Assembly: GCA_964465315.1 (NCBI GenBank)
Contig: CAYXIK010000001.1
Location: forward strand, 172,479 to 236,478
Direction: 5' to 3'
DNA from: an uncultured Gemmatimonadaceae bacterium
GTDB taxonomy: Bacteria > Gemmatimonadota > Gemmatimonadetes > Gemmatimonadales > GWC2-71-9
Length of the DNA: 64,000 bases
Shown: in pieces, positions 7,824-40,923 of the stretch
How the letters are laid out: each line of letters begins with the position of its first letter
Position numbering within the stretch: position 1 is the first letter of the stretch
Made by a program: the position numbers and the translations under genes
The notes under the pieces: model-generated
The model's input: the letters and a program-made list of their open reading frames with translations, nothing else
Databases searched by the model: none
Told to the model about the DNA's origin: nothing

Positions 7824-9502
7824 TACCGCCCCCTCCCCCGGCCCCGGGGAGGTCCGGGAGGTGGTGGAGGTTGTGAATCCGCACGAGGGCGGCAGGGGCC
7901 GTAGGCCGCGTAGTGATCGTCCGACGCCAGGAGCGGGAGCGCAGCGGCGAGCGCGGCGCGGGACTCGCGGTTTCCCGCGCTCGCGAGGAACACCGTGGGG
8001 ACTGCGCAGCGGGCGAGCGCCTCGCGCCAGAAGCTCGCCGGGAGGAGCGGCGAGCCGGGCATGGAGCGGAAGCGCTCGACGTTATCAGCGATGTAGTTGC
8101 TGGTGAGCTCCGCGCCCGTGGCCGTAGCAACCGGCACCATGCGTCGCAAGTAGAAAGGCAGTGAAGGCGGGTACGCGAGCACGCCCATAACCGAACCGGT
8201 GCCACTGCTCTCGCGCAACGCCACGGCCGTGGCGTTGGCGACGGCGCCGGACGAGCGGTCCTCGCCCACCGCGGTCAACAACCTGCCGGAAAGAAACGGG
8301 ATGGTCATCACGACTACGGCGTACCCGAACATGATCGTCCGGGGCCGCCGCGCGAGGGCGCCGAGTCCCACGAGGGCTGCGGAGCAGAGGGCGACGACCC
8401 CGAGCGCAACGGCGGTCGGTGGGATCGCGGACTTTTCAGCCGCTGTGAGACTGATCGGCGCGGGAAGCCACCAGGTCAGCGCCACGAGCGCTCCGCCCAG
8501 GAGAGCGGCGACCGGCACGTACGCGCGTGCCGCGGTGGTGCTTCCGCCGGAAGCGAAGTTGCGCGTGGCGGCGAGCGCGAACGCCGGGATGAGGGGCAGC
8601 ACGTACTGCGGCAGCTTCGACTGGTTGAGCGAGAGAAAGACGAGGGGCACGATCACCCAACATGCCAGCAGGAGCGGCTCACGCGCGGCCGGATCGCGCC
8701 GCGCCTCCCAGGCGGCACGCCACTGCTTCACGCGCGCCAAGGCCGGCACGATCCACGGGAAGGCCGCGAGCGGCAGGATCGGCAGATAATACCAGAACGG
8801 CGCCGTCCGATGAAAGCTGCGCGTGGTCACTCGCTCGAGCGTTTCGCGCACGAAGACGTAGTGCGGGAAGTCCGGGTGTCTGAGAGCCACCGCGGCGAAC
8901 CAGGGCAAGACGATCACAGCGAACGCCGCGAGCCCACGCCACGGAAACAGCCGACGCAGGGGCGCGCCAGTCAGGAGCGCGTGCGTAACGAGGGCGAGGA
9001 GCGGGATGGCGAGGGCGATCGGGCCCTTGGTCAGGGCCCCGACGGCGAGCGCGCTCCAGGCGGCGACGGGCCGTTCGTCCCAGAACCAGAGCACGGCTCC
9101 GGTCGTGCAGAGCGTGAGCGCGCTGTCGAAGATAGCCGTGCGGGCGTACGCGAGCGGGAGCAGCATGGTGGCATACGCGAGCCCCGCGATCCAGCCGGCG
9201 TCGTCCCCCCAGTGGCGCCGCGCGAACGCCACGAGCAGCGCAATCGTCGCGAGGGTCGCGAGATACGCGGGCAGCCGAGCCGCCGTTTCCGTCGGCCCGG
9301 CGACCTCCATGACCGCCGCGGCGGCGGCGAAATAGACGATCGGCTTATCGAGGTAGGGAAGCCCGTCGAGGTGGGGCACGACATAGTCGTTCGATTGCGC
9401 CATCTCGCGCGCGACTTCGGCGTTCCGGCCTTCGTCAGGGTCGAGCAGGCGATAGCCGTTCAGGTTCCAGCCGAGCGCCACCGCGGCGAGGACCAGGAGC
9501 AA
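7823..9502 (-). CDS. GT-C fold glycosyltransferase (ArnT/PMT-like, family 39/83-like)
   Basis: 559 aa with a TTG start. Many TM segments. N-terminal loop motif DPDEGRNAEVAREM...HLDGLPYLDKPIVYF as in ArnT/PMT enzymes. Confidence 0.8.
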   Translation of the reverse strand: MLLVLAAVALGWNLNGYRLLDPDEGRNAEVAREMAQSNDYVVPHLDGLPYLDKPIVYFAAAAAVMEVAGPTETAARLPAYLATLATIALLVAFARRHWGDDAGWIAGLAYATMLLPLAYARTAIFDSALTLCTTGAVLWFWDERPVAAWSALAVGALTKGPIALAIPLLALVTHALLTGAPLRRLFPWRGLAAFAVIVLPWFAAVALRHPDFPHYVFVRETLERVTTRSFHRTAPFWYYLPILPLAAFPWIVPALARVKQWRAAWEARRDPAAREPLLLACWVIVPLVFLSLNQSKLPQYVLPLIPAFALAATRNFASGGSTTAARAYVPVAALLGGALVALTWWLPAPISLTAAEKSAIPPTAVALGVVALCSAALVGLGALARRPRTIMFGYAVVVMTIPFLSGRLLTAVGEDRSSGAVANATAVALRESSGTGSVMGVLAYPPSLPFYLRRMVPVATATGAELTSNYIADNVERFRSMPGSPLLPASFWREALARCAVPTVFLASAGNRESRAALAAALPLLASDDHYAAYGPCRPRADSQPPPPPGPPRGRGRGR

Positions 9503-31627: not shown

Positions 31628-33394
31628 ATGAAGCCGCTACGCTTTCCACCCGCTCTCACGCCACCGGGCTTCCGGCGGCTAGGGCTCGCCGACATCGCGA
31701 TCCTCTGCCTGGTGGGCGGCGTGATTGCGACGGTGGTCGCATTCGCGCGGGAGTTCGAGGCGCCGTTCATGCAGGCGGTGCGTATCGACCTGAGCCCTGC
31801 GGCACTGCCGCGCTACACGCTGTACTCGCTTTCGCGCGGCATCATCGCGCTCCTCATCTCGTACCTCTTTGCCCTGGCGTTCGGTGCGGCGGCTGCGAAA
31901 TCGCGCGCCGCAGAGCGGCTGCTGCTTCCGCTGCTCGACATTCTGCAGAGCATCCCGGTGTTGGGCTTTCTCCCCGGGCTCGTGCTCGGGCTGATGTCGC
32001 TGTTTCCGACCCGTAACGTCGGGCTCGAGCTCGCGGCCATCCTGATGATCTTCACCGCCCAGGCTTGGAACCTGGCGCTGTCATTTTACAACTCGCTCAC
32101 AGGTCTGCCGGCGCCGCTGCGCGACGCGTGCAAGGTGGCGGGGTGGCCCCCGCGGCGCACCTTTTGGCAGCTCGAGGTGCCCGCCGCCGCACAAGGCCTG
32201 GTGTGGAACGGGATGCTGTCGATGGCCGGCGGCTGGTTCTTCCTGATGGTGAACGAAGCCTTCCGCCTGGGAGATCGCGACTACCGCCTGCCCGGGGTGG
32301 GATCCTACATGAGCGTCGCGCTCGACGAGGGCAACGTGCCGGCGATGGCGCTGGCAATCGGTGCGATGATCGTGATGATCGTTTGCGTCGATCAACTGCT
32401 GTGGCGCCCGCTGGTCGTCTGGGTGGAGAAGTTCCGACTGGACGAGACCGCAGGCGGGCCCCCGGCCGCGTCGTCGTGGGTGCTCGAATTTCTGCGGCGG
32501 GCGCGCCTGCCGCGGCGCGCGGCCGTCCTGCGGCGGCGCGCCTACCGCACGGCACGACGGGCGGCGCGGCCGCTGGAGGCGCCGTTCAGGACCGTCGGTC
32601 CCGTGATTCTGCGGGCGCCGCGCCTCGCATTCGCGTATCCCGCCGCGCGGAAAATCGGCGCCGGGCTGATGATCGTCGGTGTCGCGGCCGCGGCCCTCTG
32701 GGGGGCCTGGCGTCTGTGGCTGCTCCTGGCCCAGCTGGGTTGGGCGGAGTGGGGCGATCTGGTCGGGTCGGCCTCGCTCACGTTTGTCCGTGTGATGGGC
32801 GCGGTGCTCCTCTCGACCCTGTGGGCCCTGCCGGCCGGGGTGGTGATCGGCCGTTCACCGCGTCTGGCGAGCGCGCTACAGCCGGTGATTCAGGTCATCG
32901 CCTCATTTCCCGCGCCCATGCTCTTTCCCCTCGTGGTCCTCCTGTTCGAACGCGTCGGTATCGGGCTCGGGCTGGGCGCCGCGGCCCTGATGGTGCTCGC
33001 GGGACAGTGGTACATCCTCTTCAACGTCATCTCTGCGGTGGCCGCGATCCCCGAGCAGCTCAAAGACGCGACGACGGTGTTTCGGTTGCCGCGTATTGCG
33101 CGCTGGCGCGCCCTGTACTTGCCGGCGGCGTTCCCCGCCCTCGTCACGGGGTGGGTGACCGCGGCGGGAGGAGCATGGAACGGGTCGATCGTCGCTGAAT
33201 ACATTGAGGCGGGAGGGAAGCTGCGGGTCACCAGAGGACTCGGCAGCTTGATCAGCGAAGCGACGGCGCACGCCAACTTCCCGCTCCTCGCCGGGGGGAT
33301 CGCACTGATGAGTCTCATCGTGGTCGGATGGAACCGCGTCGTCTGGCGCTCGATGATGGAGTGGGCCCGAACGCGCTTCGGGCTCGAGACATGA
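31628..33394 (+). CDS. ABC transporter permease with duplicated permease domain (NitT/TauT-like)
   Basis: 588 aa with about 12 TM segments in two homologous halves, as in the 'duplicated permease' anion-transport group. Confidence 0.8.
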   Translation: MKPLRFPPALTPPGFRRLGLADIAILCLVGGVIATVVAFAREFEAPFMQAVRIDLSPAALPRYTLYSLSRGIIALLISYLFALAFGAAAAKSRAAERLLLPLLDILQSIPVLGFLPGLVLGLMSLFPTRNVGLELAAILMIFTAQAWNLALSFYNSLTGLPAPLRDACKVAGWPPRRTFWQLEVPAAAQGLVWNGMLSMAGGWFFLMVNEAFRLGDRDYRLPGVGSYMSVALDEGNVPAMALAIGAMIVMIVCVDQLLWRPLVVWVEKFRLDETAGGPPAASSWVLEFLRRARLPRRAAVLRRRAYRTARRAARPLEAPFRTVGPVILRAPRLAFAYPAARKIGAGLMIVGVAAAALWGAWRLWLLLAQLGWAEWGDLVGSASLTFVRVMGAVLLSTLWALPAGVVIGRSPRLASALQPVIQVIASFPAPMLFPLVVLLFERVGIGLGLGAAALMVLAGQWYILFNVISAVAAIPEQLKDATTVFRLPRIARWRALYLPAAFPALVTGWVTAAGGAWNGSIVAEYIEAGGKLRVTRGLGSLISEATAHANFPLLAGGIALMSLIVVGWNRVVWRSMMEWARTRFGLET

Positions 33395-34695
33395 CGCCGG
33401 GTGCCGTTCTGCTCGAGGCGCAGCATGTCACGCAGCGCTTCCGGCTCCCCAATGGACAGAACCTCGAGGCCTTGCGTGACGTGTCGCTCGCCGTGTGCGA
33501 GAACGAGGTGGTCGCCCTGGTGGGGCCGTCGGGGTGTGGCAAGAGCACGCTGTTGCGCCTCTTCGCCGGGCTCGCCCGTCCCACCGAAGGCACGGTCCTG
33601 TACCGCGGGCAGCGCCTGGACGGCGTGCTCGCGGCCGCCGCGATGGTATTCCAGTCGTTCGCCCTCCTCCCGTGGCTGACCGTCACCGAGAACGTCGCGA
33701 TGGGTCTCGAGGCCCGGGGCGTAGACGGCGCCGCCCGGCGCGACGCGGTCGCCCGTGCCATCAATCTGGTGGGCCTCGATGGGTTCGAGCAGGCATACCC
33801 GAAAGAGCTGTCCGGCGGCATGAAGCAGCGCGTGGGCTTCGCGCGCGCCCTCGCGGTGGCCCCCGAGATCCTGCTCATGGACGAGCCGTTCGGCGCACTC
33901 GATCCCCTCACCGCCGAGAACCTGCGCAGCCAGGTAGTGGACCTGTGGCGCGATGCCGCGACCGGCGTGAACACCCTCGTGGTCGTGACGCATTCGGTCG
34001 AGGAGGCGGTGTTCCTGGCGGGGCGGATCGTGGTGTTCGGCACCAACCCCGGTCACGTACGCGAGGAGCTCGTCAACCCGCTGCCGTATCCCCGCGTGGA
34101 GCGGAGCCCCGACTTCGAGCAAATGGTGGATCGGTTGCACGCTATTCTCACGGCGACGCTCCTTCCCGAGCCCGCGCCGGCCGCGCCGCAGCGCCTCGTG
34201 CCGTTCCCGAGGGTCCACGTGTCCGAAGTCACCGGTCTCCTCGACCACCTACTCACCCGCCCCGACGGCAAGGGTCCGGTGTTCGAGCTCGCGGAAGACC
34301 TCGGGGTCGATTACGACCGGATGTCGGCCGTGGTGCGCGCGGCCGAGCAGCTCGGCTGGGTCACGACGCCGGGTGAAATCGTCCAGCTGACGCAGGCAGG
34401 GCGCGAGGTGATGGCCATGGACGACGCGGCGCGAAAGGACGCCACGCGGGCCCGGCTCGCCAAGCAGCCACTGTTCGGGCGGCTGATCGCCATGCTCAAG
34501 GAGAGCGACGGCTCAGTAGAAGACGAAGAGGTACTCGCCGACCTCACCATCTACTTCCCGTTTATTCCGGCCGACTCCTTGTTCGCCACGCTGGTGGAAT
34601 GGGGGCGTTACGCGGAGCTGGTCGACCACGATACGGACGCCGGTCGTATCTCCCTGCTTGGGTGGGAGAGCGCCGCCGAGGCACGCGCCGAGTAG
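33391..34695 (+). CDS. ABC ATP-binding protein (NitT/TauT-like) with C-terminal accessory domain
   Basis: I trimmed ORF 33328..34695 to ATG 33391 (ATGA overlap). GPSGCGKSTL, LSGGMKQRVGFARAL, LLMDEPFGALD, VTHSVEEA. About 190 extra C-terminal residues follow (…LGWVTTPGEIVQLTQAGREV…). Confidence 0.85.
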   Translation: MTPGAVLLEAQHVTQRFRLPNGQNLEALRDVSLAVCENEVVALVGPSGCGKSTLLRLFAGLARPTEGTVLYRGQRLDGVLAAAAMVFQSFALLPWLTVTENVAMGLEARGVDGAARRDAVARAINLVGLDGFEQAYPKELSGGMKQRVGFARALAVAPEILLMDEPFGALDPLTAENLRSQVVDLWRDAATGVNTLVVVTHSVEEAVFLAGRIVVFGTNPGHVREELVNPLPYPRVERSPDFEQMVDRLHAILTATLLPEPAPAAPQRLVPFPRVHVSEVTGLLDHLLTRPDGKGPVFELAEDLGVDYDRMSAVVRAAEQLGWVTTPGEIVQLTQAGREVMAMDDAARKDATRARLAKQPLFGRLIAMLKESDGSVEDEEVLADLTIYFPFIPADSLFATLVEWGRYAELVDHDTDAGRISLLGWESAAEARAE

Positions 34696-34706
34696 CGGCG
34701 GTCGGA

Positions 34707-35651
34707 TTACTGGGCGAAGCAGAAGAACCGGACGTGATTCGGCGCGAGGCCTCCCGTGAGCCGCGCGAGAGCTGCCTGCCCGCCCTTGGCGAGGCGTGTC
34801 GCGGTGTCGCCAGCCAGGGCCGCCTGGTAGAGGGCGATCGCCCGCCCCTTCGCCGAATCGGCTGCGGGCAAGAACTTGGTCGAGTCGGCGTTCTCCTTCC
34901 CGAGGCCGGACGACAGCGCGACGATGTCACGATAGGCGTCTGCTTCCAGCAGCTGCGCGGTCCACTTGATCTCGGAGTCCGCGGGAGCGGCGACGAGCGG
35001 CTCGAGCCGCGCGACGATGCCATAGTAGGGCTGCGGCGAGTCTCCGCCTGCGCAGTCCGCTTCGAGCAGGAGCAACGCCGCCCGCTGGCCCATGGTCCCG
35101 GTCGGATCGAGGCGCGCCGCCTGCTGAACCCAGCCCCCCGCATACGCCATTTCGCCGCTCGCGGCCGACAGCTCGGAGCTTGCGCCGAGCGCCTTCAGGC
35201 GGCTCCGCGCCTGGGCCAGCTGCTGGCCCGGGTCGGTGAAGCCGAAGGGGTGCCACGCCAGGCGCAGCACCCGGTCCGCGACCAGATACGCGGCGGCTTG
35301 CCGAACCGAATCCTTGCCCCGCGCTCCCTTGAGCCACGTCTCGAGCGTCGTCACGAAGTCGTAGGGCGCCATGTCCGCGTATTTGCCCGACTCGTCCCGC
35401 GACTGGCGTACGATCTCGAGGATCCCGGCGGAGGAGCGGGGCGGTGGCCCGGCCTCCCGGATCCACTTGTTGATGAGGAGCACCTGCCGCTGGTAGTACT
35501 CCGGTTGCGTCTCGCCGCGCGGCGCGACGATATCGGCCGTGACCGTGGAGGCGCCGTGACGGGGAGGCCCCCCGGCCTCGTCGCTCGAGGAACCGCACCC
35601 GAGGAACAGCGGGATGGCGAATATGAGCAGGGCATGACCAGGGAGGCTCAT
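34707..35651 (-). CDS. Hypothetical lipoprotein
   Basis: I trimmed ORF 34707..35687 to ATG 35651. Lipobox LFLGCGSSS. The rest looks helical, and I do not recognise the family. Confidence 0.5.
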   Translation of the reverse strand: MSLPGHALLIFAIPLFLGCGSSSDEAGGPPRHGASTVTADIVAPRGETQPEYYQRQVLLINKWIREAGPPPRSSAGILEIVRQSRDESGKYADMAPYDFVTTLETWLKGARGKDSVRQAAAYLVADRVLRLAWHPFGFTDPGQQLAQARSRLKALGASSELSAASGEMAYAGGWVQQAARLDPTGTMGQRAALLLLEADCAGGDSPQPYYGIVARLEPLVAAPADSEIKWTAQLLEADAYRDIVALSSGLGKENADSTKFLPAADSAKGRAIALYQAALAGDTATRLAKGGQAALARLTGGLAPNHVRFFCFAQ

Positions 35652-35708
35652 CGGACCCTCGCGAATGGGGTGACGGCTAGGCGCCAAGCTAAAAGGCCCC
35701 GGCCCGCG

Positions 35709-36158
35709 TTACAATAGGACGGCGAGCGCGTCGGCTATTTCCTTGACCGTGCGATGGTGCTCCGAAGTGAAACCTGCCGGGACGTCGGAATCGATGTCGA
35801 GTTGTCCCAGGATCGTCGTGCCGCGCCGAATCAGGACTACCAGCTCGGAGCGGGTCTCGAGGTTGCAGGCGAGGTAGTTGCCCACCGCGGTTACGTCGGG
35901 CACGTTCTGGTCCTCGCCGCTCGCCACCGCCGTCCCACACACGCCCTGACCCACGGGAATGCGGGTGTGCTCTGTTTCCCGCCCGGCGAACGCCTCGAGG
36001 ACGAGCTCACCGTCGTCCAACATGTACGCGTATACCGACGTGAAGGGAGGGCCGAGTCGTCGGATTCGCTCGCACGCGAGGCGCAGCAGATCGCTGCGGG
36101 AGACGTCGTGCAGATGCGCGGCGCGGAGGGCGCGGACGATCGGGCTGGTTGCGAGCAT
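35709..36158 (-). CDS. GAF-domain protein (free methionine-R-sulfoxide reductase/YebR-like)
   Basis: 149 aa. GQGVCGTAVASGEDQNVPDV...YLACNLETRSELVVLI...GQLDIDS pattern of single-GAF MsrC-like proteins. Confidence 0.75.
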   Translation of the reverse strand: MLATSPIVRALRAAHLHDVSRSDLLRLACERIRRLGPPFTSVYAYMLDDGELVLEAFAGRETEHTRIPVGQGVCGTAVASGEDQNVPDVTAVGNYLACNLETRSELVVLIRRGTTILGQLDIDSDVPAGFTSEHHRTVKEIADALAVLL

Positions 36159-36203
36159 GCGGCTATATCTATCTTTGGCGCGACGCTCCTGGAAGCGGCC
36201 CCT

Positions 36204-36773
36204 GTGCCCATTCGTCTCCTAGTCCTCATCCCCGTCGCCGCCGCCATCAGCCTCGCTCTTTCGGCCGCCGTGGATGCCGTGGCACTCCCGCTCTTCCTCG
36301 ACACCACGGGGACGATCCTCGCGACCGCGCTCGGAGGCCCGGTCGTCGGTATCGCGACGGGCGTCGTGACCTCGGCGGTGAATTCTCTGCGGAACCCGAC
36401 GTTCTGGCCGTTCGTCGCGGTGCAGATCATCGTAGCTCTGTACGCCTGGATGGCCGCGCGGGCCGGCCTCTTCCGGAGCTTTAAAATCGCCGTTCCCGCG
36501 GGATTCGGGCTCGGCGTGATCGCTGCCCTCACGTCGACGCCGATTTCCTACCTGGTCTTCGGGTGCGCCACGACCGGCGGGATCGCTCTCACCACGGCAC
36601 TCGGCAAGGCCTTGGGGCTTCCGCCCCTGGGCGCCTGCTTCTTCGGGAGCTTCGTGGCCGACTTCGGGGACAAGGCGGTGACCTTCGCGCTCGTGACCTC
36701 GGTGCTTCACGGTCTCCCACGCCGCACCGCGGCGCGGTTCCCGTGGGCGCTGCGCGCCATCGGCGCGGCGTGA
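36204..36773 (+). CDS. Putative ECF-transporter substrate-capture (S) component
   Basis: I trimmed ORF 35754..36773 to GTG 36204; the start is uncertain. About 190 aa and about 6 TM segments. LDTTGTILATALGGPVVG resembles S-component motifs. It is the first gene of the T-A-A' operon. Confidence 0.5.
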   Translation: MPIRLLVLIPVAAAISLALSAAVDAVALPLFLDTTGTILATALGGPVVGIATGVVTSAVNSLRNPTFWPFVAVQIIVALYAWMAARAGLFRSFKIAVPAGFGLGVIAALTSTPISYLVFGCATTGGIALTTALGKALGLPPLGACFFGSFVADFGDKAVTFALVTSVLHGLPRRTAARFPWALRAIGAA

Positions 36774-37471
36774 CCCGGCTCCATCCGTTCACCTTGCTGG
36801 CGATGGCGGGAGCACTTCCCGCGCTCGCGTGGATCCTGCCCTCCCCAGTGGCCGGGCTCACGTGTGCTGTCTTAGCGCTGGCGCTCACGCTGACCCCCGG
36901 CTCCACGGACACGGTCACTGGCGTGTCCGCGCGCTGGCGCCCGGGGTTCGTCGTCTTCCGGACGGCGCTCTTCACCGCGGCCCCGTTCTGGCTGTTCCTC
37001 CTGCTGCTGCACGACGTCCCGACGACCGTCAGGATCGGCCTTCGCATTACGACGATGGTCGCGAGCTTCGTGTGGGTCGCCGCCGCGGTGCCGTCTCCGC
37101 GGTTGGTTGAGGCGATGGTCGCGGCAGGATGGAGCGCGATCGTGGCGTACGTATTCGCGGCCACGCTCTCGGCGGCGCCGGTGCTGCGGGCGCGCGCTCG
37201 GCGGATAGCGGACGCACAACGCTGCCGTGGGTTGTCCCCACGAGGCGGGCTCGCCCACCGGCTGCGCGCGCTCCGCGCCCTCGCCCTCCCACTCATCCTG
37301 TCGGCGCTCCACGAGGTGGACGAGCGGGCCCTCGCGCTCGAGACCCGCAGGCTCGTTCCGGGAGCGCGGCGCACTCCACTTTCACCGCCACCCGACCCCC
37401 TGGCCCAGCGGATGGCACGCTGGGGCCTCGTGGCGGCCTGCGCTGCGGCGCTCGCCTGGCGATTCCGGTGA
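36770..37471 (+). CDS. ECF-transporter transmembrane (T, CbiQ/EcfT-like) component
   Basis: GTG 36770 gives a GTGA overlap. 233 aa. N-terminal LHPFTLL, and cytoplasmic Arg-containing coupling segments (ADAQRCRGL, ALALETRRL). Confidence 0.6.
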   Translation: MTRLHPFTLLAMAGALPALAWILPSPVAGLTCAVLALALTLTPGSTDTVTGVSARWRPGFVVFRTALFTAAPFWLFLLLLHDVPTTVRIGLRITTMVASFVWVAAAVPSPRLVEAMVAAGWSAIVAYVFAATLSAAPVLRARARRIADAQRCRGLSPRGGLAHRLRALRALALPLILSALHEVDERALALETRRLVPGARRTPLSPPPDPLAQRMARWGLVAACAAALAWRFR

Positions 37472-38256
37472 CCCGTCTCGCCCTGGAGCGCGTGACGTTT
37501 CACTATCCGGCGACCGAGGTTCCGGCCCTCGAGGACGTGTCGCTCGACGTGGCGGGCGGTGAAGTCGTGGCGCTCGTAGGGGGCGTAGGCGCGGGGGCCT
37601 CGACCGTGCTGCTCGTCGCCGGAGACCTGGCGCCTCGAGTCGTGGGAGGACGTCTGGAAGGGCACGTCACGTTCGACGGGCAGGGTCCGAGGGGAATCGT
37701 CTTGCCGACCCCGTGGACGCAGCTCTCGGGGATGGCCTTTACCGTCTGGGACGAGGTGGCGTTCGGGCCCGCCAACCTTGGCCTCCCGCGGGACGATATC
37801 GTGCGTCGGGTCGATCACGCCGTCTCGCGGCTCGGCCTCGAAGACCTCACGTCGCGTGATCCCACGACCCTCTCGGGCGGAGAGCTTCAGCGCGTGATCG
37901 TCGCAGGGATCCTCGCCATGCAGCCGACGTTGTTGCTGCTGGACGAGCCCACGGCGGAGCTCGACCCCGCCGGGGCGCGCTCGGTGTGGCAGCTCGTTCG
38001 CACGCTGGCGACCGACGGCACGGCCATCATCGTGGCGACCACTGACCTCGACGCGGTTCCCGTGGTCGCGGACAGGGTGGTCTGGCTGGAGCGCGGTCGG
38101 GTGGCGGCGACGGGCCCCCCGGCGCTACTGGCGGGCGACGCGCTGGTCGTCGCGAACCAGGGCACCACCGTGGCGACGGTGTGGCACGCGGCGGGGCTCC
38201 CTGCGCCCTACCCGCTCACCGTCGCACAGGCAGCGCAGCGTTGGGGTCGCCGTTGA
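37468..38256 (+). CDS. ECF/ABC ATPase with degenerate Walker A and H-loop
   Basis: GTG 37468 gives a GTGA overlap. 262 aa. The Walker A position reads GGVGAGAST (Lys replaced by Ala). Signature LSGGELQR, Walker B LLLLDEPT. The H-loop position reads VATTDLD (His replaced by Thr). Confidence 0.8.
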   Translation: MTRLALERVTFHYPATEVPALEDVSLDVAGGEVVALVGGVGAGASTVLLVAGDLAPRVVGGRLEGHVTFDGQGPRGIVLPTPWTQLSGMAFTVWDEVAFGPANLGLPRDDIVRRVDHAVSRLGLEDLTSRDPTTLSGGELQRVIVAGILAMQPTLLLLDEPTAELDPAGARSVWQLVRTLATDGTAIIVATTDLDAVPVVADRVVWLERGRVAATGPPALLAGDALVVANQGTTVATVWHAAGLPAPYPLTVAQAAQRWGRR

Positions 38257-39077
38257 GTGCCGCCCTGCGACTGGACGGTGTTTCGTTCGCCTATGGAGCC
38301 GTGCAGGCGTTGGCGAATGTCTCGCTGGCGGTCGCTCCGGGAGAGCGCGTCGCACTGCTCGGGCGGAACGGCGCCGGGAAGTCTACCCTGGTGCGACTGG
38401 TCACAGGCCTCGCGCGTCCCGCGGCGGGCACAGTCTGGGTGGGAGACTGGGACACGCGAAACCGGACGCCGGACCAGCTGGCCCGGCGCGTGGGTTCCGT
38501 GTTTCAGCACGCTGACCAGCAGCTCTTCGCCCGCACGCTCGAGGACGACGTCGCGTTGGGCCCCCGAGCGCTGGGCCTGGCGCCGGCGGATGTCGCGGGA
38601 CGCGTCACGCGCGCGCTGGCGGTGCTCGAGCTCGCGACGCATGCGCGCGAGCATCCGTACGATCTGCCACCGGCGCTCCGGAAGCTGGCGGCAGTTGCGG
38701 GCGCGCTGGCACTCGAGCCTGCCGTGCTCGTGCTGGACGAGCCCACTGCGGGACTCGACCGCGTCCTACGCGCGCGCGTCACCCGCGCACTGCTCGAACG
38801 GGCGACCGATGGCGCGGCGCTCCTCGTGATCACGCACGATCTGACGTTCGCGGCGGAACTACTGGACCGCGCGGTGGTGCTCGACCGCGGTCGCCTCGCA
38901 TGCGATGAGTCGCTCGCGAGCTTGCTCGGGGCCGCGGCACGGCTCGACACGCTCGGACTCGTGCCGCCACCCGTGGCCGCGCTGTCGACGGCACTCGACC
39001 TTCCGGGCCGGCCCATCCGTGCGGCGGAAGCTGCGCGAGTGCTGGCGCGCGTTGCAGGGGGTAGGGCAGAGCCCTAG
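38253..39077 (+). CDS. ECF/ABC ATPase with canonical catalytic motifs but degenerate signature
   Basis: TTG 38253 gives a TTGA overlap. 274 aa. Walker A GRNGAGKST, Walker B VLVLDEPT, H-loop VITHDL. The signature position reads LPPAL instead of LSGGQ, and its spacing to Walker B is the same as in the upstream ATPase. Confidence 0.8.
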   Translation: MSAALRLDGVSFAYGAVQALANVSLAVAPGERVALLGRNGAGKSTLVRLVTGLARPAAGTVWVGDWDTRNRTPDQLARRVGSVFQHADQQLFARTLEDDVALGPRALGLAPADVAGRVTRALAVLELATHAREHPYDLPPALRKLAAVAGALALEPAVLVLDEPTAGLDRVLRARVTRALLERATDGAALLVITHDLTFAAELLDRAVVLDRGRLACDESLASLLGAAARLDTLGLVPPPVAALSTALDLPGRPIRAAEAARVLARVAGGRAEP

Positions 39078-39090
39078 ATTGACCCGCCCG

Positions 39091-40923
39091 ATGGCGACGC
39101 TCGAGAATTTTGCCACGCGGTTCGCACGCTGCGTGAGCCTGTTCCGAGATCCGGGCGCGAAGGACGAGCAAAAGGCCGAATTCCGCGCGCTCGCATCCCT
39201 GTTGAAGGACACCTCCGTGTCGGTTCGCGTGGCCGGCGGCCGCATCGAGGTGAACGGCGTGCCGTGCGAAGGGGAGACCCTCACCGGGCTGGTGCAGCGC
39301 CTGGACCTGCACGGCATCGCAGAGATCAGCCTCGCCGCCGATCCGCCCCCCGCGCAGTTATTCGAGCTCATGAAGGGGCTGGCCGAGCAGCCGGGGGGCG
39401 GGGACGATGTGGTCACCCGGCTCGCCGCTGTCGGTGCGAGCGGGATTCGAGTCGTCCCCGCTGCCGCGACCCCCGCGCCCACACCACCGACGTCCCGCGG
39501 TCCCGTTGCCTCGCCGGCTGACTTCGATGCGCGAGAGCCCATCGTCCCGCAGCCCGGCGCTCACATCGACCGGAAGGGGCATCCGCTGGGGACGGAGGGC
39601 ATTTTGCGTGGTGAAGCCTGGCAGGACATCAAGTCTGTGCCGCTCTCCGGCGTGCCGCTCGTGATGCACGACCCACCCCCTCCCTCGGCCGCGGACGCGC
39701 TGCCCGGGACGGCGGCTCCGGCAAAGCCGCCCGAAGACGAATCGGAGCTCTCGCTTTCAGTCGGGCGATCGGGCTCTCCGCCGCCCCCTCCGCCTCCACC
39801 TGCCGCCGCTCCGCCGGCGGGGGCGCCACCGCGACGTGTGTCAGCGGCCGAGCGGCCGCCCGCTTCCGAGCCTCCCGCCAGCCCGCCGGTCTCATCCGCA
39901 CCGACCACCGCACGGCCTCCCCTGCCGGCAGGCGCGGCCGACGTGCTCGCCGAGCTCGAACGGAACCCGACCGCCCCCAACGTGGGCGACCTGCTCGCCG
40001 CGCTCGTACGAAACGCCGAAACGGCCGTCAAGCAATCGCGCTTCGAGCAGGTGCTCGGCGTGATCGCCGGCATCATCCACGTAGAGCAGCGCGTCTCGGA
40101 GACGAGCGGCATGCGACGCCAGTACGCGATCGCGGTGCGCCGCATCTACACGAAGCCCGTGCTCCAAGCGCTGGCACACCTCCTGGCCACGCCCAGGTAC
40201 CGGGCCGACGCCGTGGCGGCGCTGCAGCGGGGCGGGGCCACGGCCGTGGAAGTTCTCATGGACCTGCTCGTGGCGGCCCCCACCGTGAGCGAGCGCCGGG
40301 CGGTGTTCGACGCGCTCAAGCAGATGACCGAGGGCACGGAACAGCTGATCCACATGCTGGACCATCCGGAGTGGTTCGTCGTGCGCAACGTGGCCGAGCT
40401 GCTGGGCGAGCTGGGCATGGATGAGGCGGTCCCCGCCCTCGCGCGACGGCTCGATCACGCAGACGAGCGGGTGCGCAAGGCGGTGGCGATGGCGCTCGCC
40501 AAGATCGGCACCCGCAACGCCGCGGAGCCGCTGCGCCGCGCGCTCCGCGACCGCTCGCTCGAGGTTCGGCTGCAGGTGGCGCTGGGGATCGGCGGGCGCA
40601 AGTCGAGCGCCCTCGCGATGCCGCTCGTAGTTGCGATGGAGGAGGAGAAGGACGAGGCGGTGGTCCGAGAGCTGATCCTCGCGCTCGGGCGCATCGGGAG
40701 TCCGGATGCCGTGCAGGCGCTCATCAAGTGGGCGCAGCCTGCGGGCCGCATCTTCGGTCGCAAGCCCAGTGCGCTGCGCTTGGCTGCGGTGGACGCATTG
40801 CGGCTCGCGGCGACGCCCGCCGCCCTGGGGACGCTCGAGGGGTTGGTGGACGACAGCGACCGCCAGATCCGCGAGGCGGCGAAGAACGCCGTCACGGAGC
40901 TCCGGCGGCCGCCACGTCCCTAA
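39091..40923 (+). CDS. HEAT-repeat protein with long Pro/Ala-rich linker
   Basis: I trimmed ORF 38905..40923 to ATG 39091. 610 aa. N-terminal globular part, a low-complexity region from about 39460 to 39950 (includes SPPPPPPPPAAAPPAGAPP), and C-terminal PBS-lyase/HEAT-like repeats (DERVRKAVAMALAKIGTRNAAEPLRRALRDRSLEVRLQVALGIGG...). Confidence 0.7.
   Translation: MATLENFATRFARCVSLFRDPGAKDEQKAEFRALASLLKDTSVSVRVAGGRIEVNGVPCEGETLTGLVQRLDLHGIAEISLAADPPPAQLFELMKGLAEQPGGGDDVVTRLAAVGASGIRVVPAAATPAPTPPTSRGPVASPADFDAREPIVPQPGAHIDRKGHPLGTEGILRGEAWQDIKSVPLSGVPLVMHDPPPPSAADALPGTAAPAKPPEDESELSLSVGRSGSPPPPPPPPAAAPPAGAPPRRVSAAERPPASEPPASPPVSSAPTTARPPLPAGAADVLAELERNPTAPNVGDLLAALVRNAETAVKQSRFEQVLGVIAGIIHVEQRVSETSGMRRQYAIAVRRIYTKPVLQALAHLLATPRYRADAVAALQRGGATAVEVLMDLLVAAPTVSERRAVFDALKQMTEGTEQLIHMLDHPEWFVVRNVAELLGELGMDEAVPALARRLDHADERVRKAVAMALAKIGTRNAAEPLRRALRDRSLEVRLQVALGIGGRKSSALAMPLVVAMEEEKDEAVVRELILALGRIGSPDAVQALIKWAQPAGRIFGRKPSALRLAAVDALRLAATPAALGTLEGLVDDSDRQIREAAKNAVTELRRPPRP

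Follow-up and report, generated by a model that had tools for sequence, protein, structure and literature searches.

Can a transporter of the energy-coupling factor (ECF) type work with only one functional ATP site? The question is raised by a four-gene operon at positions 36204–39077 of a 64,000-nucleotide stretch of contig CAYXIK010000001.1 from an uncultured Gemmatimonadaceae bacterium; the whole of this stretch is referred to below as the window. The operon encodes a putative S component, a T component, and two ATP-binding cassette (ABC) ATPases, designated A1 and A2, that have lost catalytic motifs in a complementary manner. Our answer, drawn from sequence comparison, is that the operon probably encodes a dedicated ECF-type ABC importer powered by an obligate heterodimer of A1 and A2 in which just one ATP site is catalytic. 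The four genes are:

36204–36773, forward strand: S gene, 189 amino acids, GTG start
36770–37471, forward strand: T gene, 233 amino acids, GTG start on the S stop codon (GTGA)
37468–38256, forward strand: A1 gene, 262 amino acids, EcfA1-like ABC ATPase, GTGA overlap with T
38253–39077, forward strand: A2 gene, 274 amino acids, EcfA2-like, TTG start on the A1 stop codon (TTGA)

The genes are arranged head to tail in the order S-T-A1-A2 with a 4-bp overlap at each of the three junctions. Translational coupling through GTGA, GTGA, and TTGA overlaps had been proposed in an original prediction made from the DNA alone, and all three overlaps can be read in the sequence. The GTG start at 36204 is supported by S homologues, which are also 189 amino acids long.

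The motif columns of A1 were placed by a phmmer alignment to the solved structure of CbiO (5x3x_A, E = 3.7e-36), and their conservation was read from the 120 best A1 homologues (65–100% identity), which together with the query give 121 sequences. This analysis yielded the following motifs in A1:

37504–37506, forward strand: A-loop Tyr13, kept; Tyr in 120 of 121 sequences
37579–37605, forward strand: Walker A GGVGAGAST, aligned to GPNGAGKST of 5x3x; Lys replaced by Ala44 (GCC, 37597–37599)
37693–37716, forward strand: Q-loop GIVLPTPW, aligned to GLVLQDAD; Gln replaced by Pro80 (37705–37707)
37870–37884, forward strand: signature LSGGE, intact; S, G, G, and E invariant in 121 of 121
37930–37965, forward strand: Walker B LLLLDE (37930–37947) and D-loop TAELD, kept; Asp159 in 121 and Glu160 in 120 of 121
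38032–38046, forward strand: H-loop VATTD, aligned to FSTHD; His replaced by Thr192 (38041–38043)

The Walker A Lys column is occupied by Ala in 114 sequences, Thr in six, and Gly in one, never by Lys; across orthologous loci, it reads Ala, Thr, Gly, or Cys. The Q-loop Gln column holds Pro (114 sequences), Ala (4), or Ser (3) and belongs to a conserved novel motif, P-x-P-W; Pro82, Trp83, Gln85, Ser87, and Gly88 are found in 121 of 121 sequences. Ser predominates at the H-loop column (112 of 121), followed by Thr in four sequences, Asn in three, and Gly in one; His is not among these four commonest states. The P-loop glycines (Gly38, Gly41, and Gly43) and Ser45-Thr46 are kept and near-invariant. 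The original prediction had recognized the replacement of the Walker A Lys by Ala and of the H-loop His by Thr, as well as the retention of LSGGE and the Walker B Asp-Glu, all of which are placed by the 5x3x alignment; the replacement of the Q-loop Gln by Pro is a fourth lost element that it did not list. Two technical explanations for the losses in A1 were rejected. An alignment artefact was discarded because three independent alignments agree on the Lys, Gln, and His columns, and Gln85 was discarded as a shifted Q-loop Gln because its counterpart in the ECF stretch NPDNQ is the second conserved Gln, which is also present in A2.

Losses in A2 are confined to the signature. Its motif columns were placed by a phmmer alignment to CbiO 5x3x (E = 1.9e-38), and the signature was also placed on 4mki_B:

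38361–38387, forward strand: Walker A GRNGAGKST, canonical; Lys in all orthologous A2 proteins
38496–38516, forward strand: Q-loop SVFQHAD, canonical Gln in the alignment and in orthologues
38664–38678, forward strand: signature position LPPAL in place of LSGGQ, exactly on the LSGGQ column of 5x3x and 4mki_B
38724–38759, forward strand: Walker B VLVLDE and D-loop TAGLD, canonical in the alignment and in orthologues
38826–38840, forward strand: H-loop VITHD, canonical His in the alignment and in orthologues

The alignment to 5x3x agrees with the prediction that A2 is canonical save for LPPAL. Orthologues of A2 read LPPAL, LPPPE, LPPPW, LSPAL, LPLPL, IPLAQ, LSAAH, or similar sequences at the signature position, never x-S-G-G-x, and the residues H-P-Y-D are conserved just before it (HPYDLPP). 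The spacing between the signature and Walker B, predicted to be the same in both ATPases, is indeed equal: 24 residues to the Asp in both A1 and A2. Neither profile alignments nor structure-anchored alignments placed a Lys, a His, or LSGGQ at the catalytic columns after all, the outcome that the original prediction had named as decisive against it.

A1 matches PF00005 with 66.7 bits and finds its best NCBIfam family in TIGR04520 (ECF_ATPase_1; 157.9 bits, cut-off 315); for A2 the corresponding values are 85.7 bits and 183 bits for TIGR04521 (ECF_ATPase_2; cut-off 330). As both fall below the equivalog cut-offs, A1 and A2 are relatives (paralogous), not orthologues, of characterized EcfA1 and EcfA2. 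Among solved structures, the two are closest to CbiO (5x3x and 3gfo) and to EcfA1/EcfA2; matches in the PDB include CbiO 5x3x and EcfA1 (8bmr/5d3m) as the best for A1 and CbiO 5x3x and EcfA2 (4mki_B) for A2. NCBI and Logan data contain a 262-amino acid protein identical to A1 (P0001).

How are these losses distributed over the ATP sites? The dimer of nucleotide-binding domains (NBDs) is universally head to tail, so that the catalytic side of either NBD meets the signature of its partner in a composite site. Because of this geometry, all of the defects fall in one composite site. The parts of the working site, namely the Walker A, Q-loop, Walker B, and H-loop of A2 together with the LSGGE and D-loop of A1, are all canonical and conserved, and the prediction of one intact site stands. 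The reciprocal site, formed by the P-loop side of A1 and the signature of A2, is without the Walker A Lys, the Q-loop Gln, the H-loop His, and LSGGQ. Catalytic residues are lost in A1 only, the signature is lost in A2, and the asymmetry is conserved in evolution, as documented below. The description of this site as "fully degenerate" holds for Lys, Gln, His, and the signature but goes too far for the A-loop Tyr13, the P-loop Gly and Ser-Thr residues, and the Walker B Asp-Glu, which are conserved. Near-invariance of the A1 pocket residues speaks for conservation of the pocket and against its erosion, and the pocket may still bind something.

One candidate for such a ligand is nucleotide. It is a serious, if tentative, possibility that the degenerate site binds ATP or ADP tightly without hydrolyzing it and that this structural or regulatory nucleotide keeps A1:A2 partly engaged. 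The site would then resemble the degenerate sites of TM287/288, TmrAB, and Pdr5, and the idea would refine rather than replace the model of a single catalytic site. Indeed, A1 conserves the adenine-stacking Tyr13 (120/121) and Gly38, Gly41, and Gly43, along with the Mg-coordinating Ser45 and Thr46 and the Walker B residues Asp159 and Glu160. However, Lys, Gln, His, and the partner signature are lost together, which exceeds the loss in most degenerate sites of exporters (these usually keep Lys), and the prolines of LPPAL would be expected to remove helix-dipole and backbone contacts to the gamma-phosphate.

The same conservation bears on an explanation that we consider unlikely, in which the ATP pocket of A1 has been repurposed to accept another ligand as an allosteric signal or to act as a nucleotide-free protein-protein latch. 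The dead pocket would in that case be a new element, a site for a non-ATP regulatory ligand or a latch, that gates toppling of the S component; GAGAST, LPTPW, and ATSD of A1 and HPYDLPP of A2 would be its parts. The replacement residues are near-invariant (G-A-G-A-S-T, L-P-T-P-W-T-Q-x-S-G-M, and A-T-S-D in A1; H-P-Y-D-L-P-P in A2), which is not expected from neutral erosion of a useless site. Yet this may reflect mere constraints of NBD folding and of the interface. Moreover, the data point to no ligand, and the A2 signature varies widely in the wider family (LPPAL, LPPPE, LPLPL, IPLAQ, and LSAAH). If a repurposed pocket were nevertheless real, degeneration of this site (site 1 in the survey below) would mark a mechanistically distinct subclass of dedicated ECF transporters that consume one ATP per cycle.

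A single catalytic site would have its effect through the other two components. The S, T, A1, and A2 genes share one operon in a group-I-like layout, and the two ABC ATPase domains belong to the CbiO/EcfA clade. The second gene, predicted to encode a CbiQ/EcfT-like T component, matches PF02361 (CbiQ) with 38.9 bits, above the gathering score of 25, and its product carries two conserved Arg-containing coupling-helix motifs:

37214–37231, forward strand: coupling-helix motif 1, AQRCRG (Arg153-Gly154); Arg and Gly invariant in 52 of 52 T orthologues
37337–37351, forward strand: coupling-helix motif 2, LETRR (ETRG in most orthologues); first Arg invariant in 52 of 52

Because both Arg motifs are kept, both ATPases should still grip T. 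The assignment of the first gene as a putative S component finds support in NCBIfam NF045596 (CD3073 family putative ECF transporter S component; E = 5.1e-21, 75.1 bits), with residues 7–174 aligned to positions 2–171 of the 174-position profile, its whole length; at 75.1 bits against an equivalog cut-off of 180, S lies outside the equivalog itself. The match of S to Pfam ECF_trnsprt was not significant. An AlphaFold2 model of S built with 31 homologues has a mean pLDDT (predicted local distance difference test) of 87.9 and a pTM (predicted template modeling score) of 0.84. In a Foldseek search of the PDB with this model, the best 14 matches were all ECF S components, RibU, ThiT, BioY, and PanT among them, at template modeling scores of 0.40–0.59 and weak E-values. 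The operon contains no gene for a soluble binding protein and encodes instead an integral-membrane S component with the six-helix ECF S fold.

In the mechanism that we propose, Mg-ATP bound at the single consensus site (A2 P-loop and A1 LSGGE) would close the dimer asymmetrically, while the dead site, predicted to be incapable of ATP hydrolysis, would form a permanent hinge together with the C-terminal dimerization regions typical of ECF ATPases. The coupling helices of T would pass this movement on to the S component, which would topple or be released. Hydrolysis of one ATP per cycle would then reset the transporter.

Several considerations weigh against this account. We infer hydrolysis, stoichiometry, and transport from the established mechanism of ECF and ABC systems, and the import role is assumed from family membership. 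Loss of the Walker A Lys alone is no proof that nucleotide binding has been lost; in Pdr5, a site with Cys instead of this Lys remains able to bind ATP. A1 itself keeps the conserved A-loop Tyr, the P-loop scaffold, and the Walker B Asp-Glu. In addition, S, A1, and A2 score below the equivalog cut-offs of their best families and are relatives rather than orthologues of the proteins that define them.

Could the losses simply record the decay of an operon? In this explanation, which we regard as scarcely credible, the operon would have lost its function or be losing it, and A1 would be a pseudo-ATPase about to disappear; alternatively, assembly errors would have created the noncanonical residues. 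Several catalytic residues are gone at once, and one distant A2 homologue (in locus L067, described below) is frameshifted. However, the open reading frames (ORFs) are intact, and the same states recur in sequences from independent assemblies. The complementary states were found in 120 of 120 A1 homologues. A survey of loci, built from an S-component alignment with one genome per species, yielded 80 loci, and all of those from Gemmatimonadota have the order S-T-A1-A2. In 43 of the 43 Gemmatimonadota loci with both ATPases complete, A1 is without Lys, Gln, and His, and the catalytic side of A2 is canonical (Lys, Gln, Asp-Glu, and His) but its signature is non-consensus throughout. The pattern holds down to 44–47% identity of S (L054, L055, and L057). 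It also holds in L086, where A1 is 53% identical; there A2 reads LSAAH and the Walker B of A1 is even Asp-Asp. Canonical motifs in close orthologues, which the original prediction had singled out as a sign of local errors or decay, did not appear; close and distant orthologues share the noncanonical states.

A single protein of 590 amino acids, encoded in a metagenomic locus that is syntenic (L081), is an A1~A2 fusion that is degenerate to the same full extent. Its N-terminal half is A1-like (GAVGAGCTT and ATDD), and its C-terminal half is A2-like (IPAPA). This natural fusion supports the view that A1 and A2 form one obligate heterodimer in that order.

Selection on the two ATPases was compared through the ratio of nonsynonymous to synonymous substitution rates (dN/dS). 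Against loci with at least 73% S identity, the values were 0.035–0.20 for S, 0.14–0.33 for T, 0.14–0.31 for A1, and 0.15–0.25 for A2; against the most distant loci (L054, L055, and L057), they were 0.24–0.44 for A1 and 0.19–0.41 for A2, with all four genes at ~0.2–0.5. These values are rough because dS is ~1, near saturation, which lessens the weight that they lend to the proposal of a functional single-site transporter. A1 is under purifying selection similar to that on A2. Together with the invariant LSGGE of A1, this conservation effectively refutes decay, and we judge from the sequences that the pattern is not the product of chance, error, or decay.

Milder forms of the pattern occur outside Gemmatimonadota. 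L067, from Vicinamibacteria, encodes an S component that is 32% identical, a CbiQ-type T component, and split ATPases; its A1 keeps Lys but has Glu for the Q-loop Gln and Gln for the H-loop His, and its A2 reads VLLGM at the signature. At positions 8210–9012 of L067, the A2 homologue is frameshifted into two overlapping ORFs; either this is a pseudogene or the long-read assembly is in error here. An S-T-A~A operon of Kouleothrix (Chloroflexota) encodes an S component homologous to the one described here (two segments, with 44% and 36% identity) and a fused ATPase in which Gln is lost in the N-terminal half and LPPAL stands in the C-terminal half.

Is the asymmetry peculiar to this lineage? An exhaustive HMMER search of 1.84 billion representatives with A1 as the query returned mostly fused double ATPases, from which we drew 144 fused ECF-type ATPase representatives with two complete domains. 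Site 1 was taken as the catalytic side of the N-terminal domain and/or the signature of the C-terminal domain. Both sites are canonical in 52 of the 144; site 1 deviates in 90 (62%) and site 2 in 9 (6%), figures that may be biased because the A1 query is itself degenerate. Defects on the N-terminal side co-occur with defects in the C-terminal signature (37/41 versus 49/103; Fisher p = 1.3e-6). The Walker A Lys is missing in just 5 of 144. The S components that accompany two such fused genes in S-T-A~A operons are of other kinds, one of them Trep_Strep-like. Judged by these sequences, the Gemmatimonadota locus is an extreme member of a widespread pattern of site-1 degeneracy. The claim that such asymmetry is uncharacterized in ECF importers has two parts. 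A full-text search found no published description of an ECF importer with one degenerate site, although many subscription papers lie outside its coverage and absence there is no proof; the design, however, is not peculiar to the Gemmatimonadota locus. In the literature that was found, general ABC reviews place degenerate sites in exporters, and papers on ECF transporters treat both sites as canonical.

What might the transporter carry? Conservation is much stronger in the S component than in its ATPase motor: compared with the related locus L001, identity is 96% for S, 77% for A1, and 81% for A2, and dN/dS against that locus is 0.035 for S and ~0.14–0.15 for the ATPases. Across 120 homologues, S is 73–97% identical. 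Cys121 and Cys145 are invariant in S, as are many polar residues. By analogy with other ECF S components, the substrate is probably a small micronutrient-like solute. Identity of S to NF045596 members from Peptostreptococcaceae and Cetobacterium is 25–33%; the homologues in Peptostreptococcaceae occur as single genes, as in group II systems, and those in Cetobacterium adjoin two canonical ATPases. A literature search for CD3073 found nothing.

We think it very unlikely that the complex is something other than a nutrient importer, such as a sensor or signaling device, or an exporter or flippase with an S-like membrane domain. This notion draws on an S-like domain of the same family that is fused to HD-GYP in Butyrivibrio, and on the presence of neither a riboswitch nor a biosynthetic neighbor pointing to a substrate. 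It is countered by the full S-T-A-A architecture with coupling-helix Arg motifs, which is that of ECF importers, and by the solitary S relatives in Peptostreptococcaceae, which fit group II S components sharing a general ECF module. The Butyrivibrio protein (Butyrivibrio sp. JL13D10; L068, 5965–8109) comprises 714 amino acids, with the S-like membrane domain at residues 12–192 joined to HD-GYP (HD_5); in this protein, an ECF S-like fold apparently acts as a sensor.

The host is a Gemmatimonadales soil bacterium, the G+C content of the window is ~68%, and the nearest relatives of the window's proteins come from Gemmatimonadales metagenome-assembled genomes. The operon is surrounded by a type I ABC importer, a 326-amino acid protein, a GAF protein resembling free methionine-(R)-sulfoxide reductase (fRMsr), a HEAT-repeat protein, and an M42 peptidase:

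31628–34695, forward strand: type I ABC importer pair, 588-amino acid permease (two BPD_transp_1 domains) and 455-amino acid ATPase (C-terminal AAA_assoc_C), genes overlapping
34707–35687, reverse strand: 326-amino acid ORF, no Pfam match
35709–36158, reverse strand: GAF protein of the fRMsr family, 149 amino acids, divergent, 45 bp from the S start
36159–36203, no strand: divergent intergenic gap of 45 bp between the fRMsr-like GAF gene (reverse strand) and the S gene
39091–40923, forward strand: HEAT-repeat protein, 610 amino acids, Pro-rich middle and C-terminal HEAT repeats, 14 bp past the A2 stop codon

The genes around the operon gave no hint of a pathway, and they carry little functional signal because synteny is broad across the clade. 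The best PDB matches of the GAF protein are Ta0848 (4mmn), E. coli YebR (1vhm), and fRMsr structures from S. aureus and N. meningitidis. Of 59 Gemmatimonadota loci, 56 have a homologue of this protein upstream of S, as do the distant loci L055, L057, L081, and L086; the association could signal a methionine-sulfoxide-related substrate or plain synteny. Homologues of the HEAT-repeat gene stand behind A2 in 38 loci and, across a 5-bp gap, in the distant L086, and there is none behind the fused A1~A2 gene of L081. The HEAT-repeat gene and the transporter may share a transcript. The type I importer pair occurs near the ECF operon in ~31 loci, with no binding-protein gene seen adjoining it. The 326-amino acid ORF, unlike its neighbors, was found in just three related loci.

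The 45-bp gap upstream of S had been predicted to leave no room for a riboswitch. Its size is as described, an Rfam search of 34500–39500 returned zero families at E ≤ 1, and a promoter scan returned nothing in 36159–36203. Nor did Rfam place a riboswitch directly upstream of the S homologues in 13 distant loci, where it matched just unrelated elements of the cobalamin, glycine, M-box, and SECIS types at distances of kilobases. SECIS elements and glycine riboswitches were observed a few kb from solitary S homologues of Peptostreptococcus, Ezakiella, Paraclostridium, and a Clostridiaceae genome, not adjoining the S gene:

L070 1183–1220 and L071 9816–9853: elements of this kind near solitary S homologues, matched by Rfam; also in L075 and L076

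The best current evidence on the ATP cost of an ECF cycle and on the division of labor between the two sites is the asymmetric nucleotide occupancy seen in one cryo-electron microscopy (cryo-EM) structure (PMC10368641). A natural ECF transporter with one site genetically switched off offers a ready test case. If transport occurs, a single ATP site would suffice for S toppling and reset; the dead P-loop is the EcfA1-like one, and this polarity points to the site that can be dispensed with. Hard-wired asymmetry of the same polarity, in fused or paired ATPases of Gemmatimonadota, Vicinamibacteria, and Chloroflexota, suggests that many dedicated ECF systems share this design. It would extend the principle of one consensus plus one degenerate site from ABC exporters to a type of importer.

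Among known systems, the locus resembles the group I transporters CbiMNQO, BioMNY, and YkoEDC in having S, T, and ATPase genes in one operon and no soluble binding protein, as well as a CbiQ-type T component; its ATPases are closest to CbiO among solved structures. It differs in its S component, which is related to CD3073 instead of CbiM, BioY, or YkoE. CbiO and BioM are homodimers with two identical consensus sites, whereas here two different ATPases would make one consensus and one dead site. YkoD is described merely as two fused ATPase domains (PMC5037267).

With the group II modules EcfA-EcfA'-EcfT (L. brevis 4huq, L. delbrueckii 5d3m/8bmr, and T. maritima), the locus shares a heterodimer of EcfA1-like and EcfA2-like ATPases on one T component with two Arg motifs. 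To our knowledge, both ATPase subunits of group II modules are canonical, and all motifs are canonical in the EcfA2 structure 4mki_B as aligned. In contrast, the asymmetry of the Gemmatimonadota system is hard-wired, and the module serves just one S component, whose gene lies upstream. Cryo-EM of ECF-FolT2 under turnover shows that ATP stays on EcfA and ADP on EcfA' (PMC10368641). This polarity would be the same as that proposed here if A1 corresponds to EcfA1.

Complementary, co-evolved loss that leaves one consensus site is shared with the exporters TM287/288, TmrAB, BmrCD, TAP1/2, and MsRv1273c/72c. In heterodimeric ABC exporters, catalytic residues are lost in one NBD and the signature in its partner, and one consensus site remains (PMC3971661, PMC12038006). 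Those exporters are of type IV with NBDs fused to transmembrane domains; in most cases, their degenerate sites still bind ATP and have a Walker A Lys. The Gemmatimonadota system is instead built on an ECF importer scaffold and has lost Lys, Gln, His, and signature alike. Comparably deep degeneration is found in Pdr5 and ABCG5-G8, where substitutions affect the H-loop, the signature of the partner, and even the Walker A Lys. These are eukaryotic ABCG-type exporters with an unrelated membrane architecture.

Further parallels are the fused metagenomic ECF ATPases with a weakened C-terminal signature, such as those of Kouleothrix (P0339/P0396) and the Trep_Strep-linked P0245, which have the same polarity and S-T-A~A layout. 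The C-terminal signatures that face the N-terminal P-loop in these fusions include LSRGQ, LSKGE, LPPAL, and IPPAR. Most of the fused proteins keep the Walker A Lys and many keep the His, whereas the Gemmatimonadota pair, split into two genes, stands at the extreme end of the series.

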